Notes under the pieces: generated by a model
What the model was told of the DNA's origin: nothing
What the model saw: only the letters and a program-made list of their open reading frames with translations
The model's database searches: none
Translations under genes and position numbers: made by a program
DNA from: Candidatus Saccharimonadota bacterium
GTDB taxonomy: Bacteria > Patescibacteriota > Gracilibacteria > BD1-5 > UBA6164
Assembly (NCBI GenBank): GCA_965229705.1
Contig: OZ245922.1
Location: forward strand, 480,001 to 512,000
Direction of reading: 5' to 3'
DNA length: 32,000 nt
Part shown: one piece after another, positions 3,066 to 31,102 of the stretch
Layout: every line of letters starts with the position of its first letter
Position numbering within the stretch: the first letter of the stretch is position 1

Positions 3066-3078
3066 ATCGCGAGTTTTT

Positions 3079-3555
3079 TTAATAGTTTTGTATATACCCT
3101 GTTCCCCAAAGTCCGTGTTGAGAACAACTTGCTCGAATCTCAAAGCTCTCCATTCATGATATATCAAACTCCGCTACAGGATCTTCATCTGGCATGATAA
3201 ATACCTCTTCTACAATATGCCCGTCTTCATCTATGAGATATATGGCTGTTATTCTATGATCTTCGCCTGCAGGGTGCATCTCCTCTTCTTCTCCGATACA
3301 TACTTCGATCTTGTGTTCATCATGGTAGAGGATTTTCGGAAGATGTTGGCGCTCAATATGAGAGAGATGTTCAGAATTATCTACATATATCACTTCATCT
3401 TCTATAGGAGAAAAGTCATCAAAACCCTCTCCACATCCCGGGCAATGAATATTCTCAGGAATCTCATCTATTCATGTTCCTGGAGAGATACCATCATCTC
3501 TTTCTCACAAAGATTCATCATAAATATATCAGCAATTCACGCAGAGAAATCTCAT
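3079..3555 (-). CDS. Rubredoxin-superoxide reductase (neelaredoxin-type) fusion protein
   Basis: The N-terminus reads MRFLCVNC(G)YIYDESL(G)ERDDGISPGT(G)IDEIPENIHCPGCG, where (G) marks a TGA codon. It is followed by QHLPKI, MHPAGEDHRITAIYL and ASCSQHGLW, which match SOR centre-II ligand motifs. The Cys/His ligands lie downstream of the TGA that ends track ORF 3154-3393. The true stop is TAA at 3079. Confidence 0.8.
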
Positions 3556-6983: not shown

Positions 6984-7598
6984 CTAAAAAGAAAGAGTAT
7001 AATATTTGAGGTCATCTTGCGGGAGTTCATCCCAAGAAGTATCTTCATAATCAGGAGAAAAGAAGGTAAATATTTCTAAAAATAGATCAACAATATCTCC
7101 ATTATTATAGGGAGTAAGTTGCATATTTTTTATAAAAAAATCTTCTAATACTTTATCTTTTTGAAATACAAGATTATAAGGAGATGCTGGGTTACTACTA
7201 TCTGTAAGAGCATCAAACTCTGTCTGTGAGAGACTTCGATACCCAAAAACCGTTTTTTTATATATCCCTGCATCACTCTGAGAAACAAGTGTGTAGGTAT
7301 CCATATCTACAATTCAAAACATAATCCCTCCTGAAATCCCTGGACTCGTAATGAGACCAATATCAGAGATATCTCACAGATTATCTTGTAAAACAGATAT
7401 ATTTCAAGTATTAAATACTGAACTAAAAGCATAAAAATCTCTCAGAAATTTTGCCTCTATTTGCGCCTCAATTCAACGAGAGGTACTACTACTCATAAGA
7501 TAAAAAATTGTTCCAAGTACGAGAGCCGATATCACAACTGCTACTATCAATTCTATCAGAGTATAGGCTCTTGTATTTTCGCAATAAAACTTCTGCAT
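6984..7598 (-). CDS. Protein with a prepilin-type N-terminal domain (minor pseudopilin)
   Basis: The N-terminus is MQKFYCENTRAYTLIELIVAVVISALVLGTIF, a class-III signal-like motif with Glu at +5. The frame is open through TGA down to TAG at 6984. Confidence 0.65.
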
Positions 7599-8586: not shown

Positions 8587-9486
8587 TTAGTTTTCTAGGG
8601 CTTCAATTCTTGCTTTGAGCTCTTCTATTTGGTTTTGTTGTTCTTTCACAGCTTCAAGTAACACGGCACTAAGTTTGCCATAATCAACGGACTTATAACC
8701 CTCATCATCACTACTAACGATTTGGGGATACACCGTTTCAACTTCTTGAGCGATAACTCCAATTTGTTGACTCTGATCTTTATCGGTATCTTTCCAGTTA
8801 TAGGTTACTCCTCGAAGTTTTTGTAGGTTTGCGAGTGGGTTTTGGAGTTTGGTAATATCGGTCTTGTAACGAGCGTCTGAGGTAGTATAACCACTAGTGA
8901 ATCGCGCTTTACCCGTTACATCCAGTTTATAAGAGGGATTTCTGTTCCCGATTCCAACGTTTCCATCAGTATACACCGCATCATCAGTATCGTCACCATC
9001 GACAAATTTACCGTTAGCAACGCTCGCTGAACTCCAATCTGGAGCTGTAGAGCTCCCTGGACAATTTCCGACACAAGAAGTAGAAATACTTTCTGAACGA
9101 ATACCTCACGCTACATCCAAGAGTTCTTTAGGAGAACTCGTTGATATTCATATATTCCCGGATACCTCATAAATACTTGTAGGCTGAAATATTGAGCCAT
9201 CAAACATTACTAAACTGTCAGTATCTCATGAACTGAACTCATCAAGTATTTTTAAAAAGACATTTCCTATTTTCCCATCTGTTCCAAATACCTTTGCAAT
9301 GATTTCTCACAGTTTTCCTTTTTGTTCTGCCTGAGTTGTTGGCAAGTTTGGATTTACTTGTTGCATATCATTGATACGAGGCTTTGTGAGATCAAAGTCT
9401 TGTTGCGTATCAGCAGCATATGAAAGAGGATTCGATACATGTACCACAAGAGTGCTAACGATACAAAGTGATAATAATAGTTTCAT
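8587..9486 (-). CDS. Secreted protein with a C-terminal peptidase-S74 / tail-fibre intramolecular chaperone domain
   Basis: The signal peptide is MKLLLSLCIVSTLVVHVSNPLSYAAD. The C-terminus reads SDARYKTDITKLQNPLANLQKLRGVTYNWKD...IGVIAQEVETVYPQIV...VDYGKLSAVLLEAVKEQQNQIEELKARIEALEN, which is the typical S74 pattern. The length is 900 nt, in frame with track ORF 8587-8976. Confidence 0.8.
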
Positions 9487-10320: not shown

Positions 10321-11103
10321 ATGAACAAACAATACAATAAAAAAGCTCTCACTTTTGTAGAAATGGTAGTGGTTGTTACCGTTATTTCTATTATAGGGAC
10401 TATCGGTTTTTACAGCTACACAAATAACATATCTACTGCTCAAGACACCGTAAGAGAAACTGATATCTCTGCTCTGCGATCAGAACTCAGTTTATACAAA
10501 CGAGAACGCTGAGCATATCCTTTCCCAGGAGACCACTTCTCCATTACTAATAGAGGATTAGAGGTTGCGTATCAGTGATATATGAATAAAAGCGTTGCTC
10601 TCTCTACAGCAGAAAACCTCCCCTACGATCCCCTCTTAAATATTCCATATATATATTCTACAACTGTAAATAGGCAAGAATATGAGCTTGCAGCAACTCT
10701 CGAAAACAAAGGATCTCAAAAAGCTCTTGTATGATGAGATTATAAATCTGTTGCAAAAAATATTCTCCCTCATATCATTCTTGCCTATAGCGGTCAGAGT
10801 GATATGGAGATAAATAACGACTTTTCTGCAGGAAGCACAAACAGAAAGCTTTTCGTCTTCGACGAATGAACCCATAATCTCGTCTATGACATATACACCG
10901 GTAATCCTTATAGCTCTGGCGTGAGTTTTGATACAAACTTGAATGACGGAAGTGAGTCTTTCTGGCAAAACTCGGATTATCGAAATTGCGATGAGATTGA
11001 GAGTGCTCGAAAAAATATTACTCCTACATGATCTCAAGATGAGTATCAAATACTTGATGATTCTTGAACACTCGTAAACACAAATTGTTCTGGAGTAAAT
11101 TAA
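10321..11103 (+). CDS. Type IV pilin-like protein (prepilin N-terminal methylation motif)
   Basis: The N-terminus is MNKQYNKKALTFVEMVVVVTVISIIGTIGFYSY. The frame continues through seven TGA to TAA at 11101-11103. Total length is 783 nt, in frame with track ORF 10321-10512. Confidence 0.8.
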
Positions 11104-12296: not shown

Positions 12297-12332
12297 CAAA
12301 CCCGGGGTATCATACCCCGGGTTTGTTTTTTT
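12297..12332 (+). terminator. Second intrinsic terminator hairpin
   Basis: The sequence is caaacccgggg-tatcata-ccccgggtttg followed by ttttttt. Confidence 0.6.
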
Positions 12333-12393: not shown

Positions 12394-12441
12394 TTGTATT
12401 TTCGTGAAAAAGAAGTATTTTTCTCTTGGAAAATACTTTCT
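12394..12441 (+). promoter_or_regulatory. Candidate promoter plus conserved inverted repeat upstream of pilin-FISUMP copy 1
   Basis: TTGTAT (12394-12399) is followed by 16 nt and TATTTT (12416-12421). It overlaps the inverted repeat agaagtattttt-ctcttgg-aaaatactttct. The same architecture precedes all four copies. Confidence 0.35.
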
Positions 12442-12454
12442 TAATTATTTCTTT

Positions 12455-13888
12455 ATGAAGCCATCTTTCTTAAAAAAAACTCAGGGTTTTACTCTGGTAG
12501 AACTGATCACGGTAGTGACAATCCTCGCTGTACTCTCTGCTATAGGATTTGTCTCTTTTTCTGGGTATCTCGCAGGAGTACGAGATACCAATAGACTCTC
12601 ACAGCTCACATCTATCTATGACGGTTTAGAGCTCTACGCGACAAAGTATGATCTCCCTATGCCTGATGACGCTGTAGAGATACAAGACGGATCGAGTCTC
12701 TTAGGATACCAAGGAAATATTGGAGCAAATATCCTCGATATCCTCGACTTTAGTCGAGGAGGAGTTGATCCAAAAGATGATTCATATTTTGTGTATTATC
12801 TCTCTGCAGATAAAAGTGATTTTCAGCTTATGGCGTTTCTCGAGGAAGAACAAAATGTTCCAACGGTATTTTTTCCTCAAGCTTATGCAGAAAAAGACTA
12901 TAGCAATCTTTATCCAGTCGTATTTGGAGAAAAGTTAGGAATACTCCTTGATGAGACAACGAAAACTCCAGTCCATGAGATAGAGGCAGTCAAGACTGCT
13001 GGAGCGTTAGATTTAGATGGAAGCACGGAGAGTTATACTGCCTACTTTAAAAATGATGATACCGCAACGGATACAGGAGAAAATCTGTGAGAGACGATAG
13101 AGGAGGAGAGAGAGGAAGGGACGAGTAGTTCGAGTGTTTCGAGTAGTTCAACTACTGCTTCTACTGCGCCTACTGATTGGAGAGATCAAGACCCAAACTG
13201 TGACAGAGCAGATGTGACTATCTGAACACAAACTTGGGCATGATGTAACTCGACTCTGGGAACATGATTTGAGTTTTGACAAAAAGATGCGGATATAGGA
13301 ACGAATAATTATAGTGGATCGGTAGGTAGTTGTTACAACTATAACGGAAACAATTCCGCCACTTGTATCAAGTGAGACATAACGATGGCGAGTACCTCTA
13401 AAGCCAATGATTGGTTTACCGGAACGAATAATGATGGAGATACTGCCGTAGATAATATATGGGGAAAGTTCTACACTTGGGATTCTCTCGATACTGATAA
13501 TGATGATGATATAGACGCAAATGATACCAACCTCGTCTGTTGAGTGTGATACCATGTACCAAGTGAACTCGAATGGGAAACACTGGAAGAATACTTGAAT
13601 GGATCAGCTTGTAGAACTACAAGTAATTGACAATGCGACTGACAGTGATGGCAGTACCACTCAACGACTAATAGTGATAGCAGTATTGCTGCTCTCCTAC
13701 AGATTCCTTTGAGTGGTTGGAGGAGTAATAATACATTCAATAGTCGTGGGTACTATGGGTATCTATGGTCTAGTACGGTAAATGGATCTGAGGCTTATAG
13801 GAGAGGATTCAGTAATCTCTATACTACTGTTGATAGTAACAATCGTACACAATCGAATTGATATTCAGTCAGATGTATCAAGGATTAG
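12455..13888 (+). CDS. Type IV pilin N-terminal module fused to a FISUMP (Fibrobacter succinogenes major paralogous, TIGR02145-like) domain, copy 1
   Basis: The protein starts MKPSFLKKTQ-G|FTLVELITVVTILAVLSAIGF, followed by a 211-aa TGA-free pilin module and a boundary TGA (13088-13090). The linker is ETIEEEREEGTSSSSVSSSSTTASTAPTDW. The FISUMP part reads VTI(G)TQTWA(G)CNS...IWGKFYTWD...C(G)V(G)YHVPSELEWETLEEYL...LWSSTVNGS...SN(G)YSVRCIKD, ending at TAG 13886-13888. Confidence 0.9.
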
Positions 13889-13894
13889 GTATAA

Positions 13895-13925
13895 AATCCC
13901 GGGCTTCAGCCCGGGATTGTTTTTG
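13895..13925 (+). terminator. Intrinsic terminator after copy 1
   Basis: The sequence is aatcccgggc-ttca-gcccgggatt followed by gttttt. Confidence 0.65.
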
Positions 13926-13951
13926 GGGATTGCTCTGTACTCTAGAGAAAG

Positions 13952-14040
13952 CTCTGAGAAACAAAAAATTTCTCATCCTCTCTGGCTCTCACGAGCCATC
14001 TCTCCTTTGCAAAAGGAGAGAGAAAAGGAGTTTCTCAGAG
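13952..14040 (+). repeat. Structured intergenic repeat ('E element'), complete copy
   Basis: The outer stem is ctctgagaaac/gtttctcagag. It encloses the hairpins ggctc-tcac-gagcc and tctctcctt-tgca-aaggagaga. Confidence 0.7.
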
Positions 14041-14145
14041 CCTGTTTAACCCCGGGGTTGTTTTTTTAAGAAGAACTATATCCACACACAAGATTCTTTC
14101 TTGAGTCAACGAAAAAACTCTTGCTCTATTGTATTTTCGTGAAAA

Positions 14146-14176
14146 AGAAGTATTTTTCTCTTGGAAAATACTTTCT
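14146..14176 (+). promoter_or_regulatory. Conserved inverted repeat upstream of copy 2
   Basis: This is the same sequence as 12411-12441, offset by 1735 nt. Confidence 0.3.
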
Positions 14177-14189
14177 TAATTATTTCTTT

Positions 14190-15629
14190 ATGAAGTCATC
14201 TTTCTTAAAAAAAACTTAGGGTTTTACTCTGGTAGAACTGATCACGGTAGTGACTATCCTTGCTGTACTTGCAGCTATAGGATTTGTCTCTTTTTCTGGG
14301 TATCTCGCAGGAGTACGAGATACCAATAGGCTTTCTCAACTTACATCTATCTATGACGGTTTAGAGCTCTACGCGACAAAGTATGATCTGCCTATGCCTG
14401 ATGACGCTGTAGAGATACAAGACGGATCGAGTCTCTTAGGATACCAAGGAAATATAGGAGCAAATATCCTCGATATCCTCGACTTTAGTCGAGGAGGAGT
14501 TGATCCAAAAGATGATTCATATTTTGTGTATTATCTCTCTGCAGATAAAAGTGATTTTCAGCTTATGGCATTTCTCGAGGAAGAACAAAATGTTCCAACG
14601 GTATTTTTTCCTCAGGCATATGCCGATAAAGACTATAGTAATCTTTATCCAGTCGTATTTGGAGAAAAGTTAGGAATACTCCTTGATGAGACAACGAAGA
14701 CTCCCGTTCATGAGATAGAGGCAGTCAAGACGGCTGGAGCGTTAGATTTAGATGGAAGCACGGAGAGTTATACTGCCTACTTTAAAAATGATGATACCGC
14801 AACGGATACAGGAGAAAATCTATGAGAGACGATAGAGGAGGAGAGAGAGGAAGGGACGAGTACTTCGAGTGTTTCGAGTAGTTCAACGACTGCTTCTACT
14901 GCTCCTACAGACTGGAGAGCTCAAGACCCAAATTGTGACAGAGCAGATGTGACTATCTGAACACAGACGTGGGCATGATGTAACTCGACGCTGGGAACAT
15001 GATTTGAGTTTTGACAAAAAGATGCGGATATAGGAACGAATAACTATAGTGGGACGGTAAGTAGTTGTTACAACTATAACGGAAACAATTTCACTTGTAT
15101 CAAGTGAGACATAACGATGGCGAGTACCTCTAAAGCCAATGATTGGTTTACTGGAACGAATATATATGGAGATACTGCCGTAGATAATATATGGGGAAAG
15201 TTCTACACTTGGGATTCTCTCGATACGGATAATGATAATGATATAGACGCAAATGATACGAACCTTGTATGTTGAGTGGGATACCATGTACCAAGTAGAG
15301 CAGAATGGGAAACACTCGAAGAATACTTGAATGGATCAAATTGTAGAACTTCAGACAGTGATAGTTTCCAGTGTAAATGACAGTGATGGACGTACCACTC
15401 AACGACTAATAGTGATACAAGTATTGCCTCAGTCCTCCAGATTCCTCTGAGTGGTTGGAGTAATAGTAGTAAAACATTCTATGGTCGTGGGTACAATGGG
15501 TCTCTATGGTCTAGTACGGTAAATGGATCTAATGCTTATAGAAGATATTTTGCGTATAATAATACCCAAGTCTATAGTGACGATGTTTCACAATCGAATT
15601 GACATTCAGTCAGATGTATCAAGGATTAG
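14190..15629 (+). pseudogene. Pilin-FISUMP copy 2, interrupted by a TAG nonsense codon at codon 10
   Basis: The gene reads ATG AAG TCA TCT TTC TTA AAA AAA ACT TAG GGT TTT ACT CTG GTA GAA. The TAG at 14217-14219 replaces the CAG (Gln) found in the other three copies. The rest of the 480-codon frame is intact through TGA codons down to TAG at 15627-15629. Confidence 0.7.
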
Positions 15630-15697
15630 GGATTTTTGAACGCCGGGGTGTAGCCTGGAGTTTTCTTTTTGGGGATTGCTCTGTACTCTAGAGAAAG

Positions 15698-15787
15698 CTC
15701 TGAAAAACAAAAAATTTCTCATCCTCTCTGGCTCTAAACTAGCCATCTCTCCTTTGCAAAAGGAGAGAGAAAAGGAGTTTCTCAGAG
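15698..15787 (+). repeat. E element, complete copy
   Basis: The architecture matches 13952-14040. The small hairpin variant is ggct-ctaaac-tagcc, and the outer stem has one A/C mismatch. Confidence 0.7.
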
Positions 15788-15794
15788 TCTGTTT

Positions 15795-15828
15795 AACCCC
15801 GGGGTATGATACCCCGGGGTTGTTTTTT
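15795..15828 (+). terminator. Intrinsic terminator hairpin
   Basis: The sequence is aaccccgggg-tatgata-ccccggggtt followed by gtttttt. Confidence 0.6.
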
Positions 15829-16035
15829 GGGTGTTTAGAGAAAAGAGAGAAAACAGTTTTCCCCTCCCTTACCAAGGGAGGGGCTAGGGGAGGGTTATAC
15901 TTCTAGAGAGAGTTCTGAGTTTAAGTTTGAACCCCGGGCTACAGCCCGGGGTTCAAACTTAAAACAGTATACAAAGCATACTTCATACCTTTTCGCAAGA
16001 GATATTTTTCGCTTTTTTTCAAAAAATCTATTAAC

Positions 16036-17310
16036 ATGAAAATAATATTAAGAAGTAGTAAAAATATGACAGTAAATGATAAATACTCTGAAGTATGAGA
16101 AATGAAAATGCAAGAAAATCTCTGAGATGTCGTAGAGTACGTTGCATCTATTTTTAAGAATGCTATAGATTTTTGAGCTTCTGATATTCATATAGAACCC
16201 ACACAGCACTTTTTGCTGATTCGTTTTCGACAAGATGGGGATTTTCACATGATTGATAAAGTACATCTTGATAACGCCTCTGCAATTATTACTAGACTCA
16301 AGGTACTCTCAAAAATCAAGATAGATGAAAATAAAAAACCTCAAGACGGAAAAATCGTATACGAATACGAAAACTCTCAAGATCACAGCAAAGAACATAT
16401 AGATATTCGTCTCTCCACTCTTCCAACAAATTATGGAGAAAAAATCGTGATGCGTATTCTCAAACAGGATGACTCTCTCACAAATATTGAAGCGCTCGGA
16501 CTCATAGATGTCAATGTAGAAAAAGTACGCGAAGCGCTCAAAAGTAAATATGGAATTGTATTAGTTGCTGGTCCAACAGGGTCAGGAAAATCAACCACGC
16601 TTTTTGGAGTTCTCAAACACTTTAATCCTCTCGAGTACAATATATCAACTCTCGAAGATCCAATAGAATACGATATTGAGTATGTAAATCAATCTCAGGT
16701 ACATCCATGAATTGATTATACCTTCGCCTCTGGACTGAGGAGTCTCGTACGTCAAGATCCCGATATCATTATGGTATGAGAAATCCGTGATAAAGAAACG
16801 GCAACTCTCGCTGTAGAAGCCGCACTTACTGGACACCTCGTACTTTCTACGATTCATACCAACTCTGCAACCGCAACAATTCAAAGACTTATTAATATGT
16901 GAGTAGAACCATTTTTGCTTGCAAGTGCTATGAAGATGGTTATATCTCAAAGACTCTGAAAAAGACTCTGTAAAAACTGTAAGGTTCCTGAAGAACTCAG
17001 TGATTTTAAGAAAAAAAAGGTACACTCATACCTTGATAGTATTATGGATCCAAAAGAAGTAGACTCTATTGTTTTCTATAAAGCTGAGTGATGTGAAGTA
17101 TGCCATAACTCATGATATAAATGACGACTCGGAATACATGAGGTACTGATAATAGAAGAATACATCGAACCCATGATCCTCGCAGAAGAAAGTGCTACCA
17201 GTATACAAAGAGAAGCAATGCAGCACGGCATGATCACTATTGTACAAGATGCTCTCTTAAAAGCAGCTATCTGAAATACGAGTCTTGATGAAGCATTTAA
17301 ACTTATTTAA
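16036..17310 (+). CDS. pilB: Type IV pilus assembly ATPase PilB/GspE family, short form, copy 1
   Basis: Motifs are [29 protein letters not shown](G)[16 protein letters not shown], and CxxC...CHNS(G)YK(G)RLGIHEVL. The length is 1275 nt, in frame with track ORF 16213-16710. Confidence 0.9.
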
Positions 17311-17315
17311 AAACT

Positions 17316-17642
17316 ATGTTTGGAAGAGGAAAAAAAGTAAATTTTAAAGATATAAAAAACTTTCGCGATGCCGTGAGAGCTATAAGATGATATATCTATC
17401 TTTCTGAGTGGGTCAAAGCAAATACTGCTATTACTGAACTAGAAGACAAAGAAAAAGCTGCCTTTGAGGAGCTAGAACATCATCTAAAAAATGATTATAC
17501 AGAACTACAAAAACAGAAAAAAAAGTACGAGAAAAATAGATCTGAGGCTTATAGGAGAACTTTTTGGCATGAGAGTACCAACGTCCTTAGTAACGATTCT
17601 CCACAATCGAATTGATTTTCAGTCAGATGTATCAAGGATTAG
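17316..17642 (+). pseudogene. Chimeric junction ORF: codons 1-76 of the PP2C/SpoIIE gene fused in frame to the last 32 codons of a FISUMP domain
   Basis: The product reads MFGRGKKVNFKDIKNF...KKKYEKNRS|EAYRRTFWHESTNVLSNDSPQSN(G)FSVRCIKD*. It diverges from the full-length gene after 'aatagatctg' (17544 versus 23174). The FISUMP copies carry 'aatggatctg' at the equivalent point. Confidence 0.7.
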
Positions 17643-17648
17643 GTATAA

Positions 17649-17678
17649 AATCCCGGGCTGAAGCCCGGGATTGTTTTT
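17649..17678 (+). terminator. Intrinsic terminator hairpin
   Basis: The sequence is aatcccgggc-tgaa-gcccgggatt followed by gttttt. Confidence 0.6.
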
Positions 17679-17705
17679 GGGGATTGCTCTGTACTCTAGA
17701 GAAAG

Positions 17706-17780
17706 CTCTGAGAAACAAAAAATTTCTCATCCTCTCTGGCTCTCACGAGCCATCTCTCCTTTGCAAAAGGAGAGAGAAAA
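17706..17780 (+). repeat. E element, 3'-truncated copy
   Basis: The 5' outer arm and both inner hairpins are present. The 3' arm is replaced by cggtgttcccctctc..., consistent with a deletion between gagagaaaa direct repeats. Confidence 0.6.
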
Positions 17781-17962
17781 CGGTGTTCCCCTCTCTTCGC
17801 GTATAAGAGACCAGTCTCGAAAATGAATGTTTGTTTGAGTCTTGAGTAGCAACCCCGGACTGAAAAACTCCGAGTTGCTTTTGTAAAAGAGCTATATTCA
17901 CACACTAGAGTCTTTGCTGAGTCAAGTAAAAATCCTGTAAGTCATTGCGTTTTCCACAAAAG

Positions 17963-17990
17963 GAAGTATTTTCCTCTTGAGAAATACTTC
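17963..17990 (+). promoter_or_regulatory. Conserved inverted repeat, with a candidate -10 box, upstream of copy 3
   Basis: The repeat is gaagtattt-tcctcttgag-aaatacttc, preceded by TTGCGT, 16 nt and TATTTT. Confidence 0.3.
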
Positions 17991-18004
17991 TTTAACATTT
18001 CTTT

Positions 18005-19453
18005 ATGAAGTCATCTTTCTGTAAAAAAACTCAGGGTTTTACTCTGGTAGAACTGATCACGGTAGTAACAATCCTCGCTGTACTCTCTGCTATAGGATTT
18101 GTCTCTTTTTCTGGGTATCTCGCAGGAGTACGAGATACCAATAGACTTTCTCAACTTACATCTATCTATGACGGTTTAGAGCTCTACGCGACAAAGTATG
18201 ATCTGCCTATGCCTGATGACGCTGTAGAGATACAAGACGGATCGAGTCTCTTAGGATACCAAGGAAATATTGGAGCAAATATCCTCGATATCCTCGACTT
18301 TAGTCGAGGAGGTGTTGATCCCAAAGATGATTCATATTTTGTGTATTATCTCTCTGCAGATAAAAGTGATTTTCAGCTTATGGCGTTTCTCGAGGAAGAA
18401 CAAAATGTTCCAACGGTATTTTTTCCTCAGGCATATGCCGATAAAGACTATAGTAATCTTTATCCAGTCGTATTTGGAGAAAAGCTTGGAATACTCCTTG
18501 ATGAGACAACGAAGACTCCTGTTCATGAGATAGAGGCAGTCAAGACGGCTGGAGCGTTAGATTTAGAGGGAGACACAACGAGTTATACTGCCTACTTTAA
18601 AAATGATGATACCGCAACGGATACAGGAGAAAATCTGTGAGAGACGATAGAGGAGGAGAGAGAGGAAGGGTCGAGTACTTCGAGTGTTTCGAGTAGTTCA
18701 ACGACTGCTTCTACTGCTCCTACAGACTGGAGAGCTCAAGACCCAAATTGTGACAGAGCAGATGTGACTATCTGAACACAGACGTGGGCATGATGTAACT
18801 CGACGCTAGGAGCATGACTTGAGTGGTGACAAACAGATGCGGATATAGGGACAAATAATTATAGTGGATCGGTAGGTAATTGTTATGATTATAATGGAAA
18901 CTACATAGATACAAGTAACTGTACTGCATGAGATATAACGATGGCAAGCAACTCAAAGGCTAATGACTGGTTTACTGGAACGAATAATAATGGAGATACT
19001 GCCGTAGATAATATATGGGGAAAGTTCTATACTTGGGATTATCTCGATACAGATAATGATAACGATATAGACGCAGATGATACGAACCTCGTATGTTGAG
19101 TGGGATACCATGTACCAAGTAACAGTGAATGGGAAACACTCGAAGAATACTTGAATGGATCAAATTGTAGAACTTGAAATGGTTACCAGTGTGACTGACA
19201 GTGATGGACGTACCACTCAACAACGAATAGTAATACAAGTATTGCCTCAGTCCTCCAGATTCCTCTGAGTGGTTATCGTACTGATCTTGATAATAAAACA
19301 TTCTATCATCGTGGGAGATATGGGTATCTATGGTCTAGTACGGTAAATGGATCTAAGGCTTATAGAAGAATGTTCACTTATAATAGTACCGAAGTCTATA
19401 GCGGCGATACTTCACAATCTGCTTGATATCCAGTCAGATGTATCAAGGATTAG
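18005..19453 (+). CDS. Pilin-FISUMP fusion, copy 3
   Basis: It starts MKSSFCKKTQ-G|FTLVEL. The pilin module is track ORF 18005-18640, with the boundary TGA at 18638-18640. The FISUMP domain contains 10 further TGA and ends ...SA(G)YPVRCIKD at TAG 19451-19453. Confidence 0.9.
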
Positions 19454-19459
19454 GTATAC

Positions 19460-19489
19460 AATCCCGGGCTGAAGCCCGGGATTGTTTTT
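19460..19489 (+). terminator. Intrinsic terminator hairpin after copy 3
   Basis: The hairpin is the same as at 17649, offset by 1811 nt. Confidence 0.6.
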
Positions 19490-19516
19490 GGGGATTGCTC
19501 TGTACTCTAGAGAAAG

Positions 19517-19591
19517 CTCTGAGAAACAAAAAATTTCTCATCCTCTCTGGCTCTCACGAGCCATCTCTCCTTTGAAAAAGGAGAGAGAAAA
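19517..19591 (+). repeat. E element, 3'-truncated copy
   Basis: It matches 17706-17780 at an offset of 1811 nt, with the loop variant tgaa instead of tgca. Confidence 0.6.
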
Positions 19592-19773
19592 CGGTGTTCC
19601 CCTCTCTTCGCGTATAAGAGACCAGTCTCGAAAATGAATGTTTGTTTGAGTCTTGAGTAGCAACCCCGGACTGAAAAACTCCGAGTTGCTTTTGTAAAAG
19701 AGCTATATTCACACACTAGAGTCTTTGCTGAGTCAAGTAAAAATCCTGTAAGTCATTGCGTTTTCCACAAAAG

Positions 19774-19801
19774 GAAGTATTTTCCTCTTGAGAAATACTT
19801 C
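19774..19801 (+). promoter_or_regulatory. Conserved inverted repeat upstream of copy 4
   Basis: It is identical to 17963-17990. Confidence 0.3.
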
Positions 19802-19815
19802 TTTAACATTTCTTT

Positions 19816-21264
19816 ATGAAGTCATCTTTCTGTAAAAAAACTCAGGGTTTTACTCTGGTAGAACTGATCACGGTAGTAACAATCCTCGCTGTACTCTCTG
19901 CTATAGGATTTGTCTCTTTTTCTGGGTATCTCGCAGGAGTACGAGATACCAATAGGCTTTCTCAACTTACATCTATCTATGATGGTTTAGAGCTCTACGC
20001 GACAAAGTATGATCTGCCTATGCCTGATGACGCTGTAGAGATACAAGACGGATCGAGTCTCTTAGGATACCAAGGAAATATAGGAGCAAATATTCTCGAT
20101 ATCCTCGACTTTAGTCGAGGAGGTGTTGATCCCAAAGATGATTCATATTTTGTGTATTATCTCTCTGCAGATAAAAGTGATTTTCAGCTTATGGCATTTC
20201 TCGAGGAAGAACAAAATGTTCCAACGGTATTTTTTCCTCAGGCATATGCCGATAAAGACTATAGTAATCTTTATCCAGTCGTATTTGGAGAAAAGCTTGG
20301 AATACTCCTTGATGAGACAACGAAGACTCCTGTTCATGAGATAGAGGCAGTCAAGACGGCTGGAGCGTTAGATTTAGAGGGAGACACAACGAGTTATACT
20401 GCCTACTTTAAAAATGATGATACCGCAACGGATACAGGAGAAAATCTGTGAGAGACGATAGAGGAGGAGAGAGAGGAAGGGTCGAGTACTTCGAGTGTTT
20501 CGAGTAGTTCAACGACTGCTTCTACTGCTCCTACAGACTGGAGAGCTCAAGATCCTAATTGTGACAGAGCAGATGTGACTATCTGAACACAGACTTGGGC
20601 ATGATGTAACTCGACGCTAGGAGCATGACTTGAGTGGTGACAAACAGATGCGGATATAGGGACGAATAACTATAGTGGGACAATAAGCGCTAATCAAGGT
20701 TGTTATAATTACGGAAATACTTCTTGAGTAGCTTGTACCAAGTGAGATATAACGATGGCGAGTACCTCTAAAGCCAATGATTGGTTTACCGGAACGAATA
20801 CATATGGAGATACTGCCGTAGATAATATATGGGGAAAGTTCTACACTTGGGATTCTCTCGATACGGATAATGATAACGATATAGACGCAAATGATACGAA
20901 CCTTGTATGTTGAGTGGGATACCATGTACCAAGTGAACTCGAATGGGAAACACTGGAAGAATACTTGAATGGATCAGCTTGTAGAACTACAAGTAATTGG
21001 CAATGCCACTGACAGTGATGGAAGTACCACTCAACGACAAATAGTGATAGGAGTATAGCAGCATTATTACAAATTCCTCTGAATGGTTATAGGAGTAGTA
21101 GTAGTAAAACATTCTATACTCGTGGGAACTATGGGTATCTATGGTCTAGTACGGTAAATGGATCTAATGCTTATAGAAGATATTTTTGGTATAATAGTAC
21201 CAACGTCGCTAGTGACGATGTTCCACAATCGTATTGACTTTCAGTTAGGTGTATCAAGGATTAG
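19816..21264 (+). CDS. Pilin-FISUMP fusion, copy 4
   Basis: The pilin module protein is identical to copy 3 (track ORF 19816-20451). The FISUMP domain is divergent and ends ...SY(G)LSVRCIKD at TAG 21262-21264. Confidence 0.9.
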
Positions 21265-21270
21265 GTATAA

Positions 21271-21300
21271 AATCCCGGGCTTCAGCCCGGGATTGTTTTT
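21271..21300 (+). terminator. Intrinsic terminator after copy 4
   Basis: The sequence is aatcccgggc-ttca-gcccgggatt followed by gttttt. Confidence 0.65.
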
Positions 21301-21327
21301 GGGGATTGCTCTGTACTCTAGAGAAAG

Positions 21328-21417
21328 CTCTGAGAAACAAAAAATTTCTCATCCTCTCTGGCTCTAAACTAGCCATCTCTCCTTTGCAAAAGGAGAGAGA
21401 AAAGGAGTTTCTCAGAG
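21328..21417 (+). repeat. E element, complete copy
   Basis: The outer stem ctctgagaaac/gtttctcagag is perfect. Otherwise it is identical to 15698-15787. Confidence 0.7.
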
Positions 21418-21665
21418 TCTGTTTAACCCCGGGGTATGATACCCCGGGGTTGTTTTTTGGGTGTTTAGAGAAAAGAGAGAAAACAGTTTTCCCCTCCCTT
21501 ACCAAGGGAGGGGCTAGGGGAGGGTTATACTTCTAGAGAGAGTTCTGAGTTTAAGTTTGAACCCCGGGCTACAGCCCGGGGTTCAAACTTAAAACAGTAT
21601 ACAAAGCATACTTCATACCTTTTCGCAAGAGATATTTTTCGCTTTTTTTCAAAAAATCTATTAAC

Positions 21666-22940
21666 ATGAAAATAATATTAAGAAGTAGTAAAAATATGAC
21701 AGTAAATGATAAATACTCTGAAGTATGAGAAATGAAAATGCAAGAAAATCTCTGAGATGTCGTAGAGTACGTTGCATCTATTTTTAAGAATGCTATAGAT
21801 TTTTGAGCTTCTGATATTCATATAGAACCCACACAGCACTTTTTGCTGATTCGTTTTCGACAAGATGGGGATTTTCACATGATTGATAAAGTACATCTTG
21901 ATAACGCCTCTGCAATTATTACTAGACTCAAGGTACTCTCAAAAATCAAGATAGATGAAAATAAAAAACCTCAAGACGGAAAAATCGTATACGAATACGA
22001 AAACTCTCAAGATCACAGCAAAGAACATATAGATATTCGTCTCTCCACTCTTCCAACAAATTATGGAGAAAAAATCGTGATGCGTATTCTCAAACAGGAT
22101 GACTCTCTCACAAATATTGAAGCGCTCGGACTCATAGATGTCAATGTAGAAAAAGTACGCGAAGCGCTCAAAAGTAAATATGGAATTGTATTAGTTGCTG
22201 GTCCAACAGGGTCAGGAAAATCAACCACGCTTTTTGGAGTTCTCAAACACTTTAATCCTCTCGAGTACAATATATCAACTCTCGAAGATCCAATAGAATA
22301 CGATATTGAGTATGTAAATCAATCTCAGGTACATCCATGAATTGATTATACCTTCGCCTCTGGACTGAGGAGTCTCGTACGTCAAGATCCCGATATCATT
22401 ATGGTATGAGAAATCCGTGATAAAGAAACGGCAACTCTCGCTGTAGAAGCCGCACTTACTGGACACCTCGTACTTTCTACGATTCATACCAACTCTGCAA
22501 CCGCAACAATTCAAAGACTTATTAATATGTGAGTAGAACCATTTTTGCTTGCAAGTGCTATGAAGATGGTTATATCTCAAAGACTCTGAAAAAGACTCTG
22601 TAAAAACTGTAAGGTTCCTGAAGAACTCAGTGATTTTAAGAAAAAAAAGGTACACTCATACCTTGATAGTATTATGGATCCAAAAGAAGTAGACTCTATT
22701 GTTTTCTATAAAGCTGAGTGATGTGAAGTATGCCATAACTCATGATATAAATGACGACTCGGAATACATGAGGTACTGATAATAGAAGAATACATCGAAC
22801 CCATGATCCTCGCAGAAGAAAGTGCTACCAGTATACAAAGAGAAGCAATGCAGCACGGCATGATCACTATTGTACAAGATGCTCTCTTAAAAGCAGCTAT
22901 CTGAAATACGAGTCTTGATGAAGCATTTAAACTTATTTAA
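21666..22940 (+). CDS. pilB: Type IV pilus assembly ATPase PilB/GspE family, copy 2
   Basis: As far as I can read it, the nucleotide sequence is identical to 16036-17310. Confidence 0.9.
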
Positions 22941-22945
22941 AAACT

Positions 22946-24844
22946 ATGTTTGGAAGAGGAAAAAAAGTAAATTTTAAAGATATAAAAAACTTTCGCGATG
23001 CCGTGAGAGCTATAAGATGATATATCTATCTTTCTGAGTGGGTCAAAGCAAATACTGCTATTACTGAACTAGAAGACAAAGAAAAAGCTGCCTTTGAGGA
23101 GCTAGAACATCATCTAAAAAATGATTATACAGAACTGCAAAAGCAGAAAAAAAAGTACGAGAAAAATAGATCTGTGATCATCCAACTCAAAAAAGAATAT
23201 GAAGTAAAAAAAATCAAGTATGAGAGAAAAATATCCTCAGAAAAATTTCATGTTCGCTTTGATAGTATCAAGAAAGAAATAGAAAAACTTTCTCTTGAGT
23301 GAGACGGTACAGAAGCACTCGCTGCACTCACATCTTTTTTTGAAGAAAACAAAAACAACTATCAAGTAGTTTTATATTACGCCAGAGAAAAGAAGAGAAT
23401 TGCGAAAAATATGAAAAAACAGGATATTTTTAAAAAGAAGAAAAAAAAGCAAAGTACCGAACTTGAGGCTCTCAGGCTTGCGGGAATCACACTGAAAAAT
23501 CAAAAAATTGCCGAACAAGAAAAAGAAAAACAAATAAAAGAAAACCAACAAAACTCATTTTTTTGACGTATAAGAGAATCGATAAATTTTCATAAAAAAC
23601 TCAAAGCAAAATATAGAGAAAAACAACTCCTCGATGAGATTCGACTCCTCACCGAAGAAAGCTCTAAGGTAAAGCAAGATATTGCCAAGCAAAAACTCTC
23701 TCATATGCATCAATGACTGATTAAAGAAATAGAGAAAAATCATCTCATAGGTTTTGATCTCTACGGAAAAATACTTGGTTCTGACAAGATATCTGGAGAC
23801 TGCTTTGGTATGTATGAAAGTAAGGAGAAATATAGCTTTTATATGGGAGATGCTACAGGACACTGAGTACAGGCATGACTCATCGTATCGATACTCTCAA
23901 AAACTTTTACAGAACAAGCACGAAAAGATGATATTGTGAATCTGGTATATCAGATAAATAATACTCTGAAAGAGTCTCTTCAGTCAAAGCACTTTATTAC
24001 AGGAATGATATTTGAGATAGATAAAAAGTATAAAAATATCGTCAATATTGCAGGAATGTGACATGAACCACTTCTGATATATAGAGCTGAAACAAAAACT
24101 GTTGAAAAGTTTATCGCTGGAGGACTAGCAGCCGGTATTCGATACATCAAAAAACCGGAAGATATCAAACCAAAACCTGTTGAAATACATGATGGAGATA
24201 TTTTTATGAGTTATAGTGACGGGGTCATAGAGACAAAAAATGCTGAGTGAAACATCTATACGATTGATAAACTTGCTGAAACTCTTTGAAGAGTAGCTCC
24301 AGAAGCAAAAGATATTAAAGATCTCTACAGTCTCATTATGCAAGATGTAGAAGCTCATAGATGATGAACAAAGTTTGATGATGATGCAAGTATTTTTATC
24401 TTTTCACGAAACTCAGAAAAAGATCTCCTCACCGAATGATCTGAGGAACTATCAAGTGTTGCCCAAAAAGAAGGGTTTACCATGAAAGATATGAAATCTC
24501 TGGAATGAAAAAGAAAAGTAGAACTCAAAGAAGAGGTAGAGAAAATCAAACATGAAAAAAAGCTTGATAGTATTATCAATTCCCTCAAAGGACATTACTA
24601 TACTGGTGAGTATCTCAAACTCAAAGAAGAAGCAACAAGATATGTAAAAGAAGGTTTTGTACATGAAAAAATTAATTTTTACCTCAAAAAAGCACTTGAA
24701 AATGAGGATAACTATAAAATATCTCAAAAAAATACAAAGATGAGTAATAAATATATGGTTCTCCAAGAACTCTATAAAAAGAAAGAATACACCAGCGTTA
24801 TACAAGAGTGTAATGAAATAATTGCCAAAGATGGAAATATTTAA
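22946..24844 (+). CDS. Coiled-coil protein with a PP2C/SpoIIE-type serine phosphatase domain
   Basis: The domain reads ...ISGDCFGMYESKEKYSFYMGDATGH(G)VQA(G)LIVSILSK...ITGMIFEIDKKY...IAGM(G)HEPLLIY...IFMSYSDGVIETKN...FDDDASIFIF. The length is 1899 nt from ATG 22946 to TAA 24842-24844. Confidence 0.8.
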
Positions 24845-24864: not shown

Positions 24865-26085
24865 ATGGCTTTTTTCCAAAGATGATTTTTTGATAGAGCA
24901 GGAAACTTTGATAACACCAAAATCATAGCTCTTTTAAAGCAGGCACAAAAAGCCCAACTGAGAGCAGAGGTTGGGAAGAAAGCTATGGGTTCTTCTGAAA
25001 TACTGCTTTTTGCATCTACCACACAAAAAGATGTATGGGGGTTTATCAACAAATTCTCTATCTTTATTAACTCAGGGATTGATATAAAGTGAGCTCTTGC
25101 CATACTCGTAAAGCAGTCAAAAAATCCTCTGATGAAAAAAATCGTTATGGAGATGAGAACCAATATCGACCATGGTATTGCTCTACATGAAACTATGATG
25201 CAATACCCAAAAGTATTTGATGCTCTTACAACAGCTCTGATAGAAGTATGAGAAAAAACCGGTCAGCTCTGAAAAATCCTTGCAGAACTTGATACAAATC
25301 TCCTAGAAAGTATTGAACTCAAAGGAAAAGTAAAATGAGCAATGGTATATCCGATGATACTTCTTGGTCTAACAATATGTATGGTCGTATTTATGATGAT
25401 TTTTATTGTCCCACGAATTACCGAATCATTTGAAAAAGCAGGAGCCCAGCTCCCTGCAATGACACAATTTGTCGTAAATGTCTCAAACTTTCTGACAAAT
25501 GATTATCTCACTATAGGAGCTATTTTGATATTTTTATGGATTGGTATAAAAATTACGAAATCTACTTATATTGGAAGATTCTTTTTTGCAAAAATGGCAG
25601 TCAATCTTCCAGTATTTTGATATGTCGTAAAACAGTCAAATATTATATACTTTATCAAATCTTTTACAATACTTCTAGATGCGTGAGTACTCTTACTTGA
25701 TTCTATCAAAACAGCATCAAAGGTTGTTCCCAATCTCTTATATAAAAAAGAAGTCATTCGTATAAAAAATGAGGTAGAGATAGGTATCACCATCTCCAGA
25801 TCTCTTGGTCTCAATCTTGAGTATGAAACCAATGTATATATGAATAAGCTCTTTTCTGAAGAGTTTGCCTATGTTGTCAGTACCTGAGAAGAAACAGGGA
25901 CACTTTCAGCTTCTCTACAAAAAATATGAAGAAACTACAATAGTGAGCTCAAGAGATATATATGAAACATATCTTCGATGATGGAACCAATTATTATTGT
26001 TATCGTATGATTCCTCGTTGGTACCATTGTTGTTGCCATTATGCTCCCCTTCTTTCAGATGTGAGAGGTCGCAAAAAACTTATAG
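24865..26085 (+). CDS. pilC: Type IV pilus platform protein PilC/GspF family
   Basis: There are two GspF-type repeats, (G)ALAILVKQSKNPLMKKIVMEMRTNIDHGIALHETM and LLD.IKTASKVVPNLLYKKEVIRIKNEVEIGITISRSL, plus three TM segments. It is in frame with track ORF 25342-25620. The stop is TAG at 26083-26085. Confidence 0.9.
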
Positions 26086-31012: not shown

Positions 31013-31102
31013 CTCTGAGAAATAAAAAATATCCAATCCTCTCTAGCTCTACCGAGCCATCTCTCTTTTTGCAAAAGGAGAGATGAAAGGAGTTTCTCAG
31101 AG
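31013..31102 (+). repeat. E element, complete diverged copy outside the pilin array
   Basis: The sequence is ctctgagaaat...agctc-tacc-gagcc...atctctcttttt-gca-aaaggagagat...gtttctcagag. It is followed by taagagaccggtctc, a module also found at 17805-17820. Confidence 0.65.

Follow-up and report, generated by a model that had tools for sequence, protein, structure and literature searches.

A probable repertoire of modular type IV pilins with variable FISUMP heads in a code-25 bacterial genome

We describe four near-copies, U1 to U4, of a gene that fuses a type IV pilin to a FISUMP domain, encoded on the plus strand inside a type IV pilus locus. They lie in a window of 32,000 nt, the whole stretch of DNA analysed here, from a genome of about 1.0 Mb; open reading frames (ORFs) were read with translation table 25 (TGA = Gly). 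The region is probably a small repertoire of paralogous modular type IV pilins that carry adhesin heads for pilus display, with diversity kept as germline copies. The fusion as such is already known; what we add is that the heads differ at residues that diversity-generating retroelements (DGRs) rewrite in related genomes.

We take IPR011871 to be Fib_succ_major. An earlier note on this DNA knew of no description of FISUMP on a pilin, but the pairing is catalogued: IPR012902-IPR011871 is the fifth commonest modular-pilin architecture, with 40 proteins (Raynaud et al. 2021, PNAS, PMC8179133, Dataset S1), and NCBI annotation already names Gracilibacteria proteins with both domains. In that survey, the FISUMP head has "no clear function" (PMC8179133).

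The genes of the locus are the following.

6984-7598, minus strand: pilin-like gene, 204 aa, with N_methyl motif, likely minor pilin
10321-11103, plus strand: second pilin-like gene of this kind
12455-13888, plus strand: U1, intact modular pilin gene, 477 aa; PF07963 26.3, PF09603 62.1, TIGR02145 56.3 bits
14190-15629, plus strand: U2, U1-type architecture, 479 codons; TAG at codon 10, rest of ORF intact
16036-17310, plus strand: pilB copy 1 (T2SSE ATPase, 424 aa); PF00437 393 bits
17316-17642, plus strand: chimeric relic ORF, 108 codons; SpoIIE-type first 76 codons joined in frame to last 32 FISUMP codons
18005-19453, plus strand: U3, intact modular pilin gene, 482 aa; table-25 ORF and HMM matches
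19816-21264, plus strand: U4, intact modular pilin gene, 482 aa; table-25 ORF
21666-22940, plus strand: pilB copy 2; table-25 ORF, within the duplicated stretch
22946-24844, plus strand: SpoIIE/PP2C-type phosphatase gene, 632 aa; PF07228 110 bits; 5' end duplicated in the relic ORF
24865-26085, plus strand: pilC (T2SSF platform protein); PF00482 161.7 bits
26224-26802, plus strand: plain 192 aa pilin; PF07963 36.3 bits
26866-27948, minus strand: pilT-like retraction ATPase; PF00437 131.6 bits

Four plus-strand genes of one architecture had been proposed and are present, with the reservation that U2 carries a TAG at codon 10 (CAG to TAG, 14217-14219, directly ahead of the cleavage site). As assembled, U2 is not an intact prepilin gene; it may be a pseudogene, a silent copy or a sequencing error. 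The genes are not strictly consecutive, as had been thought: U1 and U2 are followed by pilB and the relic ORF, which holds a fifth, partial FISUMP 3' end, then by U3 and U4, and then by pilB again. Type IV pilus genes do lie directly downstream (pilB, pilC, the 192 aa pilin and pilT). Of these, the plain pilin is a candidate major pilin, and the pilT assignment is suggested by size and context. Within the 32 kb window we found no prepilin peptidase gene.

The genome is of the code-25, Gracilibacteria/Absconditabacteria type, with TGA recoded. This bears on whether the pilin and FISUMP parts are separate genes, the first of them ending at the boundary TGA of codon 212: under table 11 the ORF does stop at codon 211. 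Each gene, however, contains 10-11 further in-frame TGAs inside the FISUMP domain, and the domain is recognised only with TGA as glycine (for one fusion sequence, 62.4 bits to PF09603, against no match at E<=0.001 with TGA as tryptophan). Neither a start codon nor a signal follows the boundary TGA, the homologues that NCBI annotates as Gracilibacteria are full-length fusions, and conserved genes throughout the window require TGA as sense. The fusion survives this check, all these TGAs are sense codons, and we reject separate genes as having virtually no chance of being correct.

The four proteins begin with a common class III prepilin signal, MK(P/S)SF(L/C)KKTQ-G|FTLVE with Glu+5, as predicted; PF07963 (26-27 bits, curated cut-off 21.2) and TIGR02532 (25 bits, cut-off 16.3) recognise it. 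A pilin module of about 200 aa follows, and then a linker of about 40 aa, GETIEEEREEG(T/S)S(S/T)SSVSSSSTTASTAP, acidic and then Ser/Thr-rich, which is probably flexible; both had been foreseen and occur in every copy. The cysteine-rich FISUMP head spans about 235 aa. Its identity was checked with PF09603 (62-69 bits, cut-off 33.9) and TIGR02145 (56-58 bits, cut-off 41.65), and the C-terminal domain call stands; the SVRCIKD said to close it does so in U1, U2 and U4, with PVRCIKD in U3.

The AF2 model of U3 residues 1-211 has a helix at 14-64 followed by beta strands (pLDDT 77.9). In a full-length model of the homologue P0009, the helix spans 42-93, the linker is of low confidence, and block-mean pLDDT in the head is mostly >80. 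Foldseek against the PDB returned no significant match for either the pilin module or the head module, so the pilin fold and the lectin-like fold rest on HMM motifs, secondary structure and analogy. The homologue model also matches phage proteins annotated as FISUMP (E 1e-8 and 1e-5); since we assume, for these proteins, that they are receptor-binding proteins, the matches support a binding role only loosely. In relatives, this pilin scaffold is also joined to other adhesion heads: of 37, 7 have Fibrinogen_C and 5 have Laminin_G_3.

We propose that prepilin peptidase would cleave after Gly-1, and that the alpha1 helix would allow the neighbouring PilB/PilC/PilT machinery to build the subunit into a pilus, where it would probably sit at the tip or at scattered places along the filament. 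The FISUMP ligand-binding head would thereby be exposed and could bind a host or prey surface. A different role, which we consider quite unlikely, is that the prepilin signal has no purpose beyond export and anchoring in the membrane, or helps to build a short pseudopilus, the proteins being cell-surface lectins and not subunits of a long pilus. The bulky heads and long linker are in keeping with such lectins, the plain 192 aa pilin could act as major subunit in their place, and Raynaud et al. call the location of modular pilins in the filament unresolved (PMC8179133). Against it, the carrier has a full-length alpha1 helix and Glu5 and is under strong purifying selection, and the genes are embedded among pilB, pilC and pilT. 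In addition, of the two modular pilins of S. sanguinis, PilB, which has a vWA head, is described as a pilus subunit that mediates adhesion (PMC8179133), and PilC, which has a lectin head, is also reported to be in pili (PMC9934059).

Selection differs along the fusion: among the copies, dN/dS is 0.00-0.20 in the pilin, 0.34-0.56 in the head and 0.86-4.5 in a hypervariable C-terminal patch formed by the last 51 codons. The pilin modules are under strong purifying selection.

13733-13885, plus strand: hypervariable patch of U1
15474-15626, plus strand: hypervariable patch of U2
19298-19450, plus strand: hypervariable patch of U3
21109-21261, plus strand: hypervariable patch of U4

Of 48 patch codons, 20 vary, and these coincide with AAY codons in the template repeats (TRs) of three homologues (Fisher p 1e-6 to 5e-6). 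DGR targets are known to include FISUMP domains (PMC11661182), and 3 of 7 homologue loci contain a DGR cassette, made up of Avd, a reverse transcriptase (RT) and a TR, that is aimed at this same patch. These cassettes adjoin P0009, P0015 and P0045, where VR/TR mismatches fall at template adenines in 19/19, 18/18 and 20/22 cases, respectively. The patch is homologous to the DGR variable region of these relatives. This homology and the patch dN/dS of about 1-4.5 lend support to the earlier view that a variable recognition repertoire is displayed on the adjacent pilus. The carrier is kept nearly invariant, and the last ~50 head codons differ at positions that DGRs mutagenise in homologous pilin::FISUMP genes of related genomes. 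The window therefore keeps its diversity in alternative versions of the gene in the germline: three intact genes, a fourth with an early TAG, and a 3' fragment.

Might U1-U4 instead be current targets of a DGR whose RT, Avd and TR lie elsewhere in the ~1.0 Mb genome, the copy differences being products of mutagenic retrohoming? The homologues are clear targets in the same patch, the variable codons coincide with AAY codons, and many of them retain T or C at the third position. Codons 437-455 look DGR-like, which counts against our main explanation: A occurs in each of the 8 variable columns, 7 of them lie at the first or second codon position, and the copies differ there in nothing else. However, the 32 kb window holds no RT, Avd or TR, and patch diversity in it is not made by a local retroelement. 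In codons 456-487, 14 of 38 variable columns lack an A allele and 13 are third positions; among these are simple synonymous T/C differences, which a single TR common to all copies would remove. Other variable loops of the heads carry indels, which DGRs do not make. P0050, a DGR-less paralogue in a DGR-bearing MAG, is in the same "fossil" state, with 16 non-A mismatches to that MAG's TR, and, as a weak point, the best 120 matches to a Gracilibacteria DGR RT include no protein from a 1,006,762 bp contig. An active DGR elsewhere in the genome is, on this evidence, quite unlikely.

Tandem and segmental duplication gave rise to the copies, and recombination exchanges segments between them. U1-U4 are recombination mosaics (26 topology runs against 54.3 +/- 3.9 expected; 0 of 10,000 shuffles had as few). 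The 1.8 kb at 15705-17506, including pilB, has a second copy with 0 differences, and the relic ORF marks where the duplication was joined, at the microhomology AAAT[A/G]GATCT; its FISUMP part (17544-17639) is a fifth variant of the C-terminal patch. A perfect 1.8 kb duplicate is odd beside copies 5-6% apart, and counts against the main explanation.

An identical pilB stretch flanked by differing pilin genes is also what an assembly artefact could give, with two strain versions of one [pilin, pilin, pilB] locus concatenated into the 2+2 layout. We hold this to be very unlikely: the junction is a specific in-frame chimera with ~10 nt of microhomology, within a unique gene and a FISUMP 3' end, which is typical of illegitimate recombination and not of k-mer overlap; the contig is ~1.0 Mb; and tandem arrays of such pilins also occur in relatives (loci L003 and L009).

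Each gene had been credited with its own promoter and terminator. Terminator-like hairpins do lie 3' of the genes, and 20 were counted against 6.1 +/- 2.0 in shuffles; the promoters lack such support, promoter-like sites showing no enrichment (31 against 30.0 +/- 5.1 in shuffles).

13895-13918, plus strand: terminator-like GC hairpin and T run, 6 nt past the U1 stop
17649-17672 and 21271-21294: equivalents of this hairpin; the same sequence also lies 3' of U3, and a weaker one at 15643-15658
12297-12325, 15794-15822 and 21424-21452: stronger hairpins
15876-15894 and 21506-21524, plus strand: G-quadruplex (G4) motif GGGAGGGGCTAGGGGAGGG, between the pilin pair and each pilB

The mosaicism is block-wise, which would also suit programmed cassette switching like that of Neisseria pilE/pilS. 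Gene conversion would then carry head segments into one or a few expressed genes; U2, with its nonsense codon, and the 3' fragment, which lacks a promoter, would be among the donors, and the nearby G4 might initiate the exchange. U2 looks silent, the fragment has its own patch variant, the G4 motif is expected 0.005 times per 32 kb window, and the lower dS of the pilin half (0.03-0.17, against 0.22-0.44 for the head) suggests homogenisation. Yet, in contrast to pilS, three copies are full length, each with an upstream region and a terminator of its own; any tandem paralogues would be expected to show mosaicism; and the G4 tracts, which can also form an ordinary hairpin, are one independent occurrence, found in 0 of 9 homologue loci. 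Such switching seems unlikely to us, and we favour a standing repertoire of germline copies.

Several known systems resemble this repertoire. Classical DGR variable proteins include Bordetella phage Mtd and Treponema TvpA. As in DGR variable proteins, among them P0009, P0015 and P0045, the window's patch occupies the last ~50 codons and ends at the stop codon, and its variable residues match template AAY codons of homologues; unlike them, the window is without RT, Avd and template repeat, and its differences include non-adenine and synonymous changes. In Neisseria pilE/pilS, the variable part is the pilin globular domain and donors lack 5' ends. Several pilin copies, some incomplete, segment exchange and a G4 motif near pilin genes are common to both systems; in the window, it is the added head that varies, and three copies look fit for expression. 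CofB, with its lectin-like C-terminal domain, and TcpB are type IVb minor pilins. They too have a pilin domain, a linker and extra beta-rich C-terminal domains, and are thought to sit at the pilus tip, but they are single-copy and without hypervariability, and the sequences of their extra domains are unrelated. Of the two, CofB is covered in PMC8179133.

With the modular pilins of PMC8179133, the window's proteins share the class III signal and pilin module, a non-pilus module grafted at the C-terminus via a linker, genes beside the pilus machinery and, in the catalogue, the exact pair N_methyl and Fib_succ_major. They differ in three respects: several near-identical carriers with divergent heads share a locus, the linker is longer and Ser/Thr-rich, and there is a connection to DGR hypervariation. 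Finally, the Bacteroides type V pilus tip adhesins, for which an active DGR has been shown, belong to another phylum and are lipoproteins of a type V pilus assembled by strand exchange; like the window's proteins, they join a conserved assembly domain to a hypervariable C-terminal ligand-binding head (bioRxiv 10.1101/2024.11.15.621889).

The pilin and FISUMP parts form single open reading frames when the region is read with genetic code 25, and the four resulting genes (U1-U4) share one organization. A table 11 reading was rejected: its frames break at TGA into short pieces, and a comparison of glycine with tryptophan at this codon favors code 25. Each U gene holds 11-12 in-frame TGAs, and one and the same U1 segment scores 62.4 bits against PF09603 with TGA as Gly and gives no match at E<=0.001 with TGA as Trp. 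The TGA at the domain boundary is thus a sense codon, and the fusion proposed in the earlier note stands; neither of the two refuting conditions set in that note was borne out.

12455-13888, plus strand: U1, table-25 open reading frame of 477 aa
14190-15629, plus strand: U2, table-25 open reading frame with TAG at codon 10
18005-19453, plus strand: U3, table-25 open reading frame of 482 aa
19816-21264, plus strand: U4, table-25 open reading frame of 482 aa

All four encode the leader MK(P/S)SF(L/C)KKTQG and then FTLVELITVV, in which Glu occupies +5. This is a class III leader, as in MKSSFCKKTQG/FTLVELITVV, with a short basic part ending in Gly before the hydrophobic N-terminus of the N_methyl motif. 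A module of ~200 aa, the linker GETIEEEREEG(T/S)S(S/T)SSVSSSSTTASTAP, and a C-terminal domain with eight cysteines and the end SVRCIKD (PVRCIKD in U3) complete the common plan. The FISUMP assignment is borne out by PF09603 and TIGR02145 scores above the curated cut-offs; we take IPR011871 to be the InterPro entry for Fib_succ_major. An acidic insertion, DTDNDNDIDA(N/D)D, at head residues about 348-362 of U1-U4 (e.g., 19046-19090 in U3) resembles a calcium-binding DxDxD loop; among homologous database proteins, it is present in P0007 and absent from P0009.

Profile matches of U1-U4
PF09603 Fib_succ_major: 62-69 bits, cut-off 33.9 bits, model positions 1-187 of 187
TIGR02145: 56-58 bits, cut-off 41.65 bits
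PF07963 N_methyl: 26-27 bits (26-29 bits in the test of the pilin signal), cut-off 21.2 bits
TIGR02532: 25 bits, cut-off 16.3 bits

The claim of four pilin::FISUMP genes stands for the reading frames but not for the integrity of U2, in which TAG (14217-14219) replaces the CAG of the other copies at codon 10, directly before the G/F cleavage site; as assembled, U2 cannot make a prepilin, though the rest of its frame is intact. Nor are the genes consecutive, as had been stated: pilB and a chimeric open reading frame sit between U2 and U3. The order is U1, U2; pilB, chimeric frame; U3, U4; pilB, SpoIIE-type phosphatase, pilC, 192 aa pilin, pilT.

16036-17310: pilB copy 1, between U2 and the relic frame
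17316-17642: chimeric relic open reading frame, 108 codons
21666-22940: pilB copy 2, 3' of U4
after pilB copy 2: SpoIIE-type phosphatase gene
after the SpoIIE-type gene: pilC
after pilC: plain pilin, 192 aa
last of the type IV pilus genes, minus strand: pilT

Type IV pilus assembly genes adjoin the U genes (two pilB copies, pilC, the plain pilin, and pilT within 7 kb), and two further pilin-like genes lie upstream of the array. No Peptidase_A24 gene was found in the window; one lies near the homologue locus L005. The relic frame begins with codons 1-76 of the SpoIIE-type gene and ends with the 32 final codons of a FISUMP gene, fused at the microhomology AAAT[A/G]GATCT; it is a duplication junction preserving a fifth variant of the head C-terminus. 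Positions 15705-17506 and 21335-23136 show 0 differences in 1.8 kb, spanning the whole of pilB and ~190 nt at the start of the SpoIIE-type gene; U2 and U4, adjoining this stretch, are about 5-6% different. The identity is due to duplication or conversion of very recent date, or else to an assembly problem.

The spacers carry several conserved elements. Terminator-like hairpins after genes are enriched (20 versus 6.1 +/- 2.0 in shuffles), while sigma-70-like promoter matches are as frequent as expected by chance (31 versus 30.0 +/- 5.1 in shuffles), so that of the promoter and terminator formerly ascribed to each gene, the terminator finds support and the promoter does not. The hairpin after each stop codon was also considered as a homing element of a diversity-generating retroelement (DGR); because it is not conserved in DGR-linked homologues, it is read as a predicted terminator instead.

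13925-14060, 15670-15790, 17680-17790, 19490-19600, 21300-21420, 31013-31102: multi-hairpin repeat of ~100 nt, with parts CTCTGAGAAAC, TGGCTCTCACGAGCCA, TCTCTCCTTTGCAAAAGGAGAGA, GTTTCTCAGAG
12410-12443, 14145-14178, 17960-17993, 19771-19804: conserved inverted repeat, 12-45 nt before the start codon of each gene; AAGAAGTATTTTTCTCTTGGAAAATACTTTCTT in U1 and U2, GGAAGTATTTTCCTCTTGAGAAATACTTCTTT in U3 and U4
15876-15894, 21506-21524, plus strand: G-quadruplex (G4) motif GGGAGGGGCTAGGGGAGGG, between each pilin pair and pilB

The multi-hairpin repeat follows every pilin unit and recurs between an L9-like frame (a call without Pfam basis) and nusA; an Rfam search of the whole window, this repeat included, returned no family at gathering score. 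The upstream inverted repeat may act as an operator or may form a hairpin in the 5' UTR, and no Shine-Dalgarno-like sequence is evident beside it in U1-U4. The G4 motif, expected about 0.005 times per 32 kb, lies in surroundings of ~36-40% GC and was found in none of nine homologue loci; its first two G tracts can alternatively pair with upstream CCCCTCCC.

A protein search over 5.8 billion proteins gave 92 matches, and several of these homologues are tied to DGRs. P0009, at locus L002, has the architecture of the window genes and is about 40% identical to U3, with pilB immediately before it and genes for RVT_1 (reverse transcriptase, RT) and bAvd immediately after it. Its 3'-terminal 182 nt have a counterpart in an intergenic repeat that lies 210 nt downstream, and the 19 mismatches between the two all fall on adenines of that repeat. 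Mismatches confined to adenines of the template repeat (TR) are the defining signature of a DGR, and RT and Avd genes lie next to the homologues of all three loci below.

Mismatches between variable region (VR) and TR
L002, P0009: 19/19 at template adenines
L005, P0015: 18/18 at template adenines
L006, P0045: 20/22 at template adenines

At L001, L007, L008, and L009, no RT was found in the flanking sequence, which reached at most 8-10 kb per side and less where the contig ended sooner; at L009, about 290 nt of contig follow the gene. The homologue VRs align gap-free to the C-terminal patch of the window heads, the last ~50 codons (13733-13885, 153 nt, in U1). Each TR has 14-17 AAY codons, 13-15 of which correspond to codons variable among the window copies, against only 5-7 of about 32 other codons (Fisher p 1e-6 to 5e-6). 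The alignments thus mark the window patch as a homologue of a DGR variable region, and the patch probably marks a binding surface. P0050, which shares its MAG with P0009, differs from the TR of that MAG at 19 A and 16 non-A positions and is in a similar DGR-less 'fossil' state. Some database proteins (P0159, P0209) contain both PF09603 and RVT_1, probably because a single gene call ran through a FISUMP-target and a DGR cassette; P0137 and P0023 share one 285,190 bp contig; and among RTs with 55-60% identity to the Gracilibacteria DGR RT are proteins that carry the labels Candidatus Marinimicrobia and Saprospiraceae.

Between the four copies, differences gather in a few loops, some with indels; the C-terminal patch is indel-free.

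Nei-Gojobori analysis of U1-U4
Pilin module: dN/dS 0.00-0.20, dS 0.03-0.17
FISUMP head: dN/dS 0.34-0.56, dS 0.22-0.44
Last ~46 codons of the head: dN/dS 0.86-4.5

The 104 parsimony-informative sites back differing groupings in contiguous blocks: U1 pairs with U2 and U3 with U4 up to about 13378; U1 pairs with U4 and U2 with U3 at 13 consecutive sites (13565-13699); and groupings are mixed further 3'. There are 26 grouping runs where 54.3 +/- 3.9 are expected, and 0 of 10,000 shuffles had so few; the copies are therefore recombination mosaics.

An active DGR elsewhere in the source genome could now be targeting the U genes, and codons 437-455 have the look of it, since all 8 variable columns include A, 7/8 of them at codon positions 1-2, with no other differences. 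We nevertheless regard this as unlikely. In codons 456-487, 14/38 variable columns are without an A allele and 13 are third positions, with T/C synonymous differences among them, which homing from one template would erase; other variable loops contain indels; and P0050 offers a second case of the DGR-less state. Neither RT (RVT_1) nor Avd was found in the window by a Pfam scan that took in 18 further code-25 frames, self-blastn of the 32 kb gave no second copy of the patch beyond the five coding copies, and neither a hypothetical adenine-substituted template nor the homologues' TRs matched the window. More weakly, no protein of the 1,006,762 bp source contig was among the best 120 of 7972 matches in a search with the Gracilibacteria DGR RT. 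The most plausible reading of the window diversity is a stored set of paralogues that recombination and selection have shaped and that past DGR activity may have seeded.

The stored copies might instead serve programmed cassette switching of the pilE/pilS type, the paralogue array replacing the role of the DGR in sister lineages. Gene conversion would shuffle head segments between expressed genes and silent donors (the TAG copy and the 3' relic), and the adjacent G-quadruplex might be the trigger, as at Neisseria pilE; if so, the host-recognition head of a CPR type IV pilus would undergo programmed switching. The mosaic blocks, the presence of a 3' fragment and a nonsense copy, and the nearby G4 motif are consistent with such a system, but three copies are full length, and we consider it improbable. 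Our preferred explanation, which we hold to be reasonably likely, is the display of alternative heads on the adjacent type IV pilus; these lectin-like heads would serve host or prey recognition.

Structure prediction was applied to window residues 1-211, a TGA-free fragment, and to full-length P0009. The AF2 model of the window fragment (pLDDT 77.9, pTM 0.68) comprises a 51-residue N-terminal helix (14-64) and, after it, nine beta strands of at least 3 residues. The P0009 model consists of a helix (42-93) and sheet, then a linker of low confidence (238-253) and a head in which most 10-residue blocks average >80 pLDDT, with a maximum of 98. Neither model had a significant Foldseek match in the PDB, and a head profile found no solved relative among PDB sequences. 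The best PDB match of P0009 was C. difficile PilA1 (E 0.49), with weak matches to snake-venom C-type lectin-like proteins and CLEC4D (E 0.7-4, probability <=0.21); these point in the expected direction, inconclusively. A Foldseek comparison of P0009 with viral models picked out two phage proteins with FISUMP annotation (E 1.2e-8 and 1e-5), so the module occurs in phages too.

Database records partly conceal these genes. P0001 and P0002 correspond to U2 and U1; both come from a 1,006,762 bp NCBI/ENA contig, start at Met68, and are translated with TGA as Trp. P0008, from elsewhere in the source genome, is another pilin on this scaffold but bears a head of a different type. P0002 has no Pfam match at E<=0.001 in a fresh scan; the collection's precomputed table gives PF09603 for P0001 and P0002. 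Truncation together with the tryptophan reading of TGA thus keeps a new Pfam scan at that threshold from recognizing the FISUMP domain in the two products of this locus, an annotation problem. PF07963 and PF09603 occur together in many Gracilibacteria and Absconditabacteria proteins, some of which NCBI names FISUMP domain-containing or prepilin-type (e.g., QFR39771.1). Other heads on the same pilin scaffold (40-87% identical) include Fibrinogen_C (7/37), Laminin_G_3 (5/37), and Laminin_G_2 (1/37) in a fresh Pfam scan, as well as PF03382 (DUF285). Relatives also carry tandem pilin sets, with three paralogues at L003 and a DUF285 pilin adjoining a FISUMP pilin at L009; a genome-contig search with U3 found no relative.

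Further genes of the window are recorded here for their own sake. A TrwB/TraG-like coupling ATPase of 866 aa (567-3167, minus strand) visibly resembles, by motif likeness without Pfam basis, an 815 aa frame at L001 (11729-14173, minus strand) just downstream of the pilin::FISUMP gene P0007, with GKTGMGKS/GQTGTGKS and VIDPHGDL in common. The 3' end of a 158 aa rubredoxin-desulfoferrodoxin fusion (3079-3555, minus strand) overlaps the start of the 866 aa call. A secreted-looking 299 aa protein (8587-9486, minus strand) has a Peptidase_S74 (endosialidase chaperone) domain, which is typical of phage tail fibres. Peptidase_S74 is also among the modular pilin heads of Raynaud et al. (PMC8179133).

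Modular pilins were defined, and surveyed across InterPro, by Raynaud et al. 2021 (PMC8179133), and a pilin motif and FISUMP domain in one code-25 frame fit that definition. The earlier note knew of no description of FISUMP domains on a pilin; the architecture IPR012902-IPR011871 was in fact already catalogued, with 40 proteins, as the fifth most frequent, its extra domain having 'no clear function' (PMC8179133, Dataset S1). It appears there only under its InterPro number, and no open-access paper was found that names 'FISUMP' and 'pilin' together. Among DGR targets, 43 proteins with the FISUMP domain are listed, and a VR within a GspG-type pilin domain is mentioned (PMC11661182). Gracilibacteria type IV pilin::FISUMP genes as DGR targets, or arrays of them, were not found in open-access full texts. 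The locus is real, but it encodes a further modular pilin of a catalogued architecture and not a new kind of protein; because the fusion is already catalogued, the value lies in the locus organization and the DGR link. Points of interest are the multi-copy mosaic locus, variable residues that match one-to-one the DGR-targeted residues of relatives, the silent-looking copies, and the rare G4 nearby.

Dependence on other cells is presumed for Gracilibacteria and Absconditabacteria. The U genes are concrete candidates for the molecule that recognizes those cells, with a conserved pilus 'handle' and exchangeable, fast-varying heads, and DGR hypermutation of the same ~50-residue patch in related genomes marks a probable ligand-binding surface. 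Patch and heads are testable targets for expression, binding, and host-range work.

The DGR-bearing relatives and the window array together point to two ways of reaching the same goal, either hypermutation or a stored repertoire. Tip adhesins of Bacteroides type V pili are a demonstrated case of DGR diversification (bioRxiv 10.1101/2024.11.15.621889). The G4 adjoining the window array can be likened to the initiator at Neisseria pilE; a pilE/pilS-type system, however, consists of an expressed locus and silent partial copies, whereas the window holds three full-length copies.
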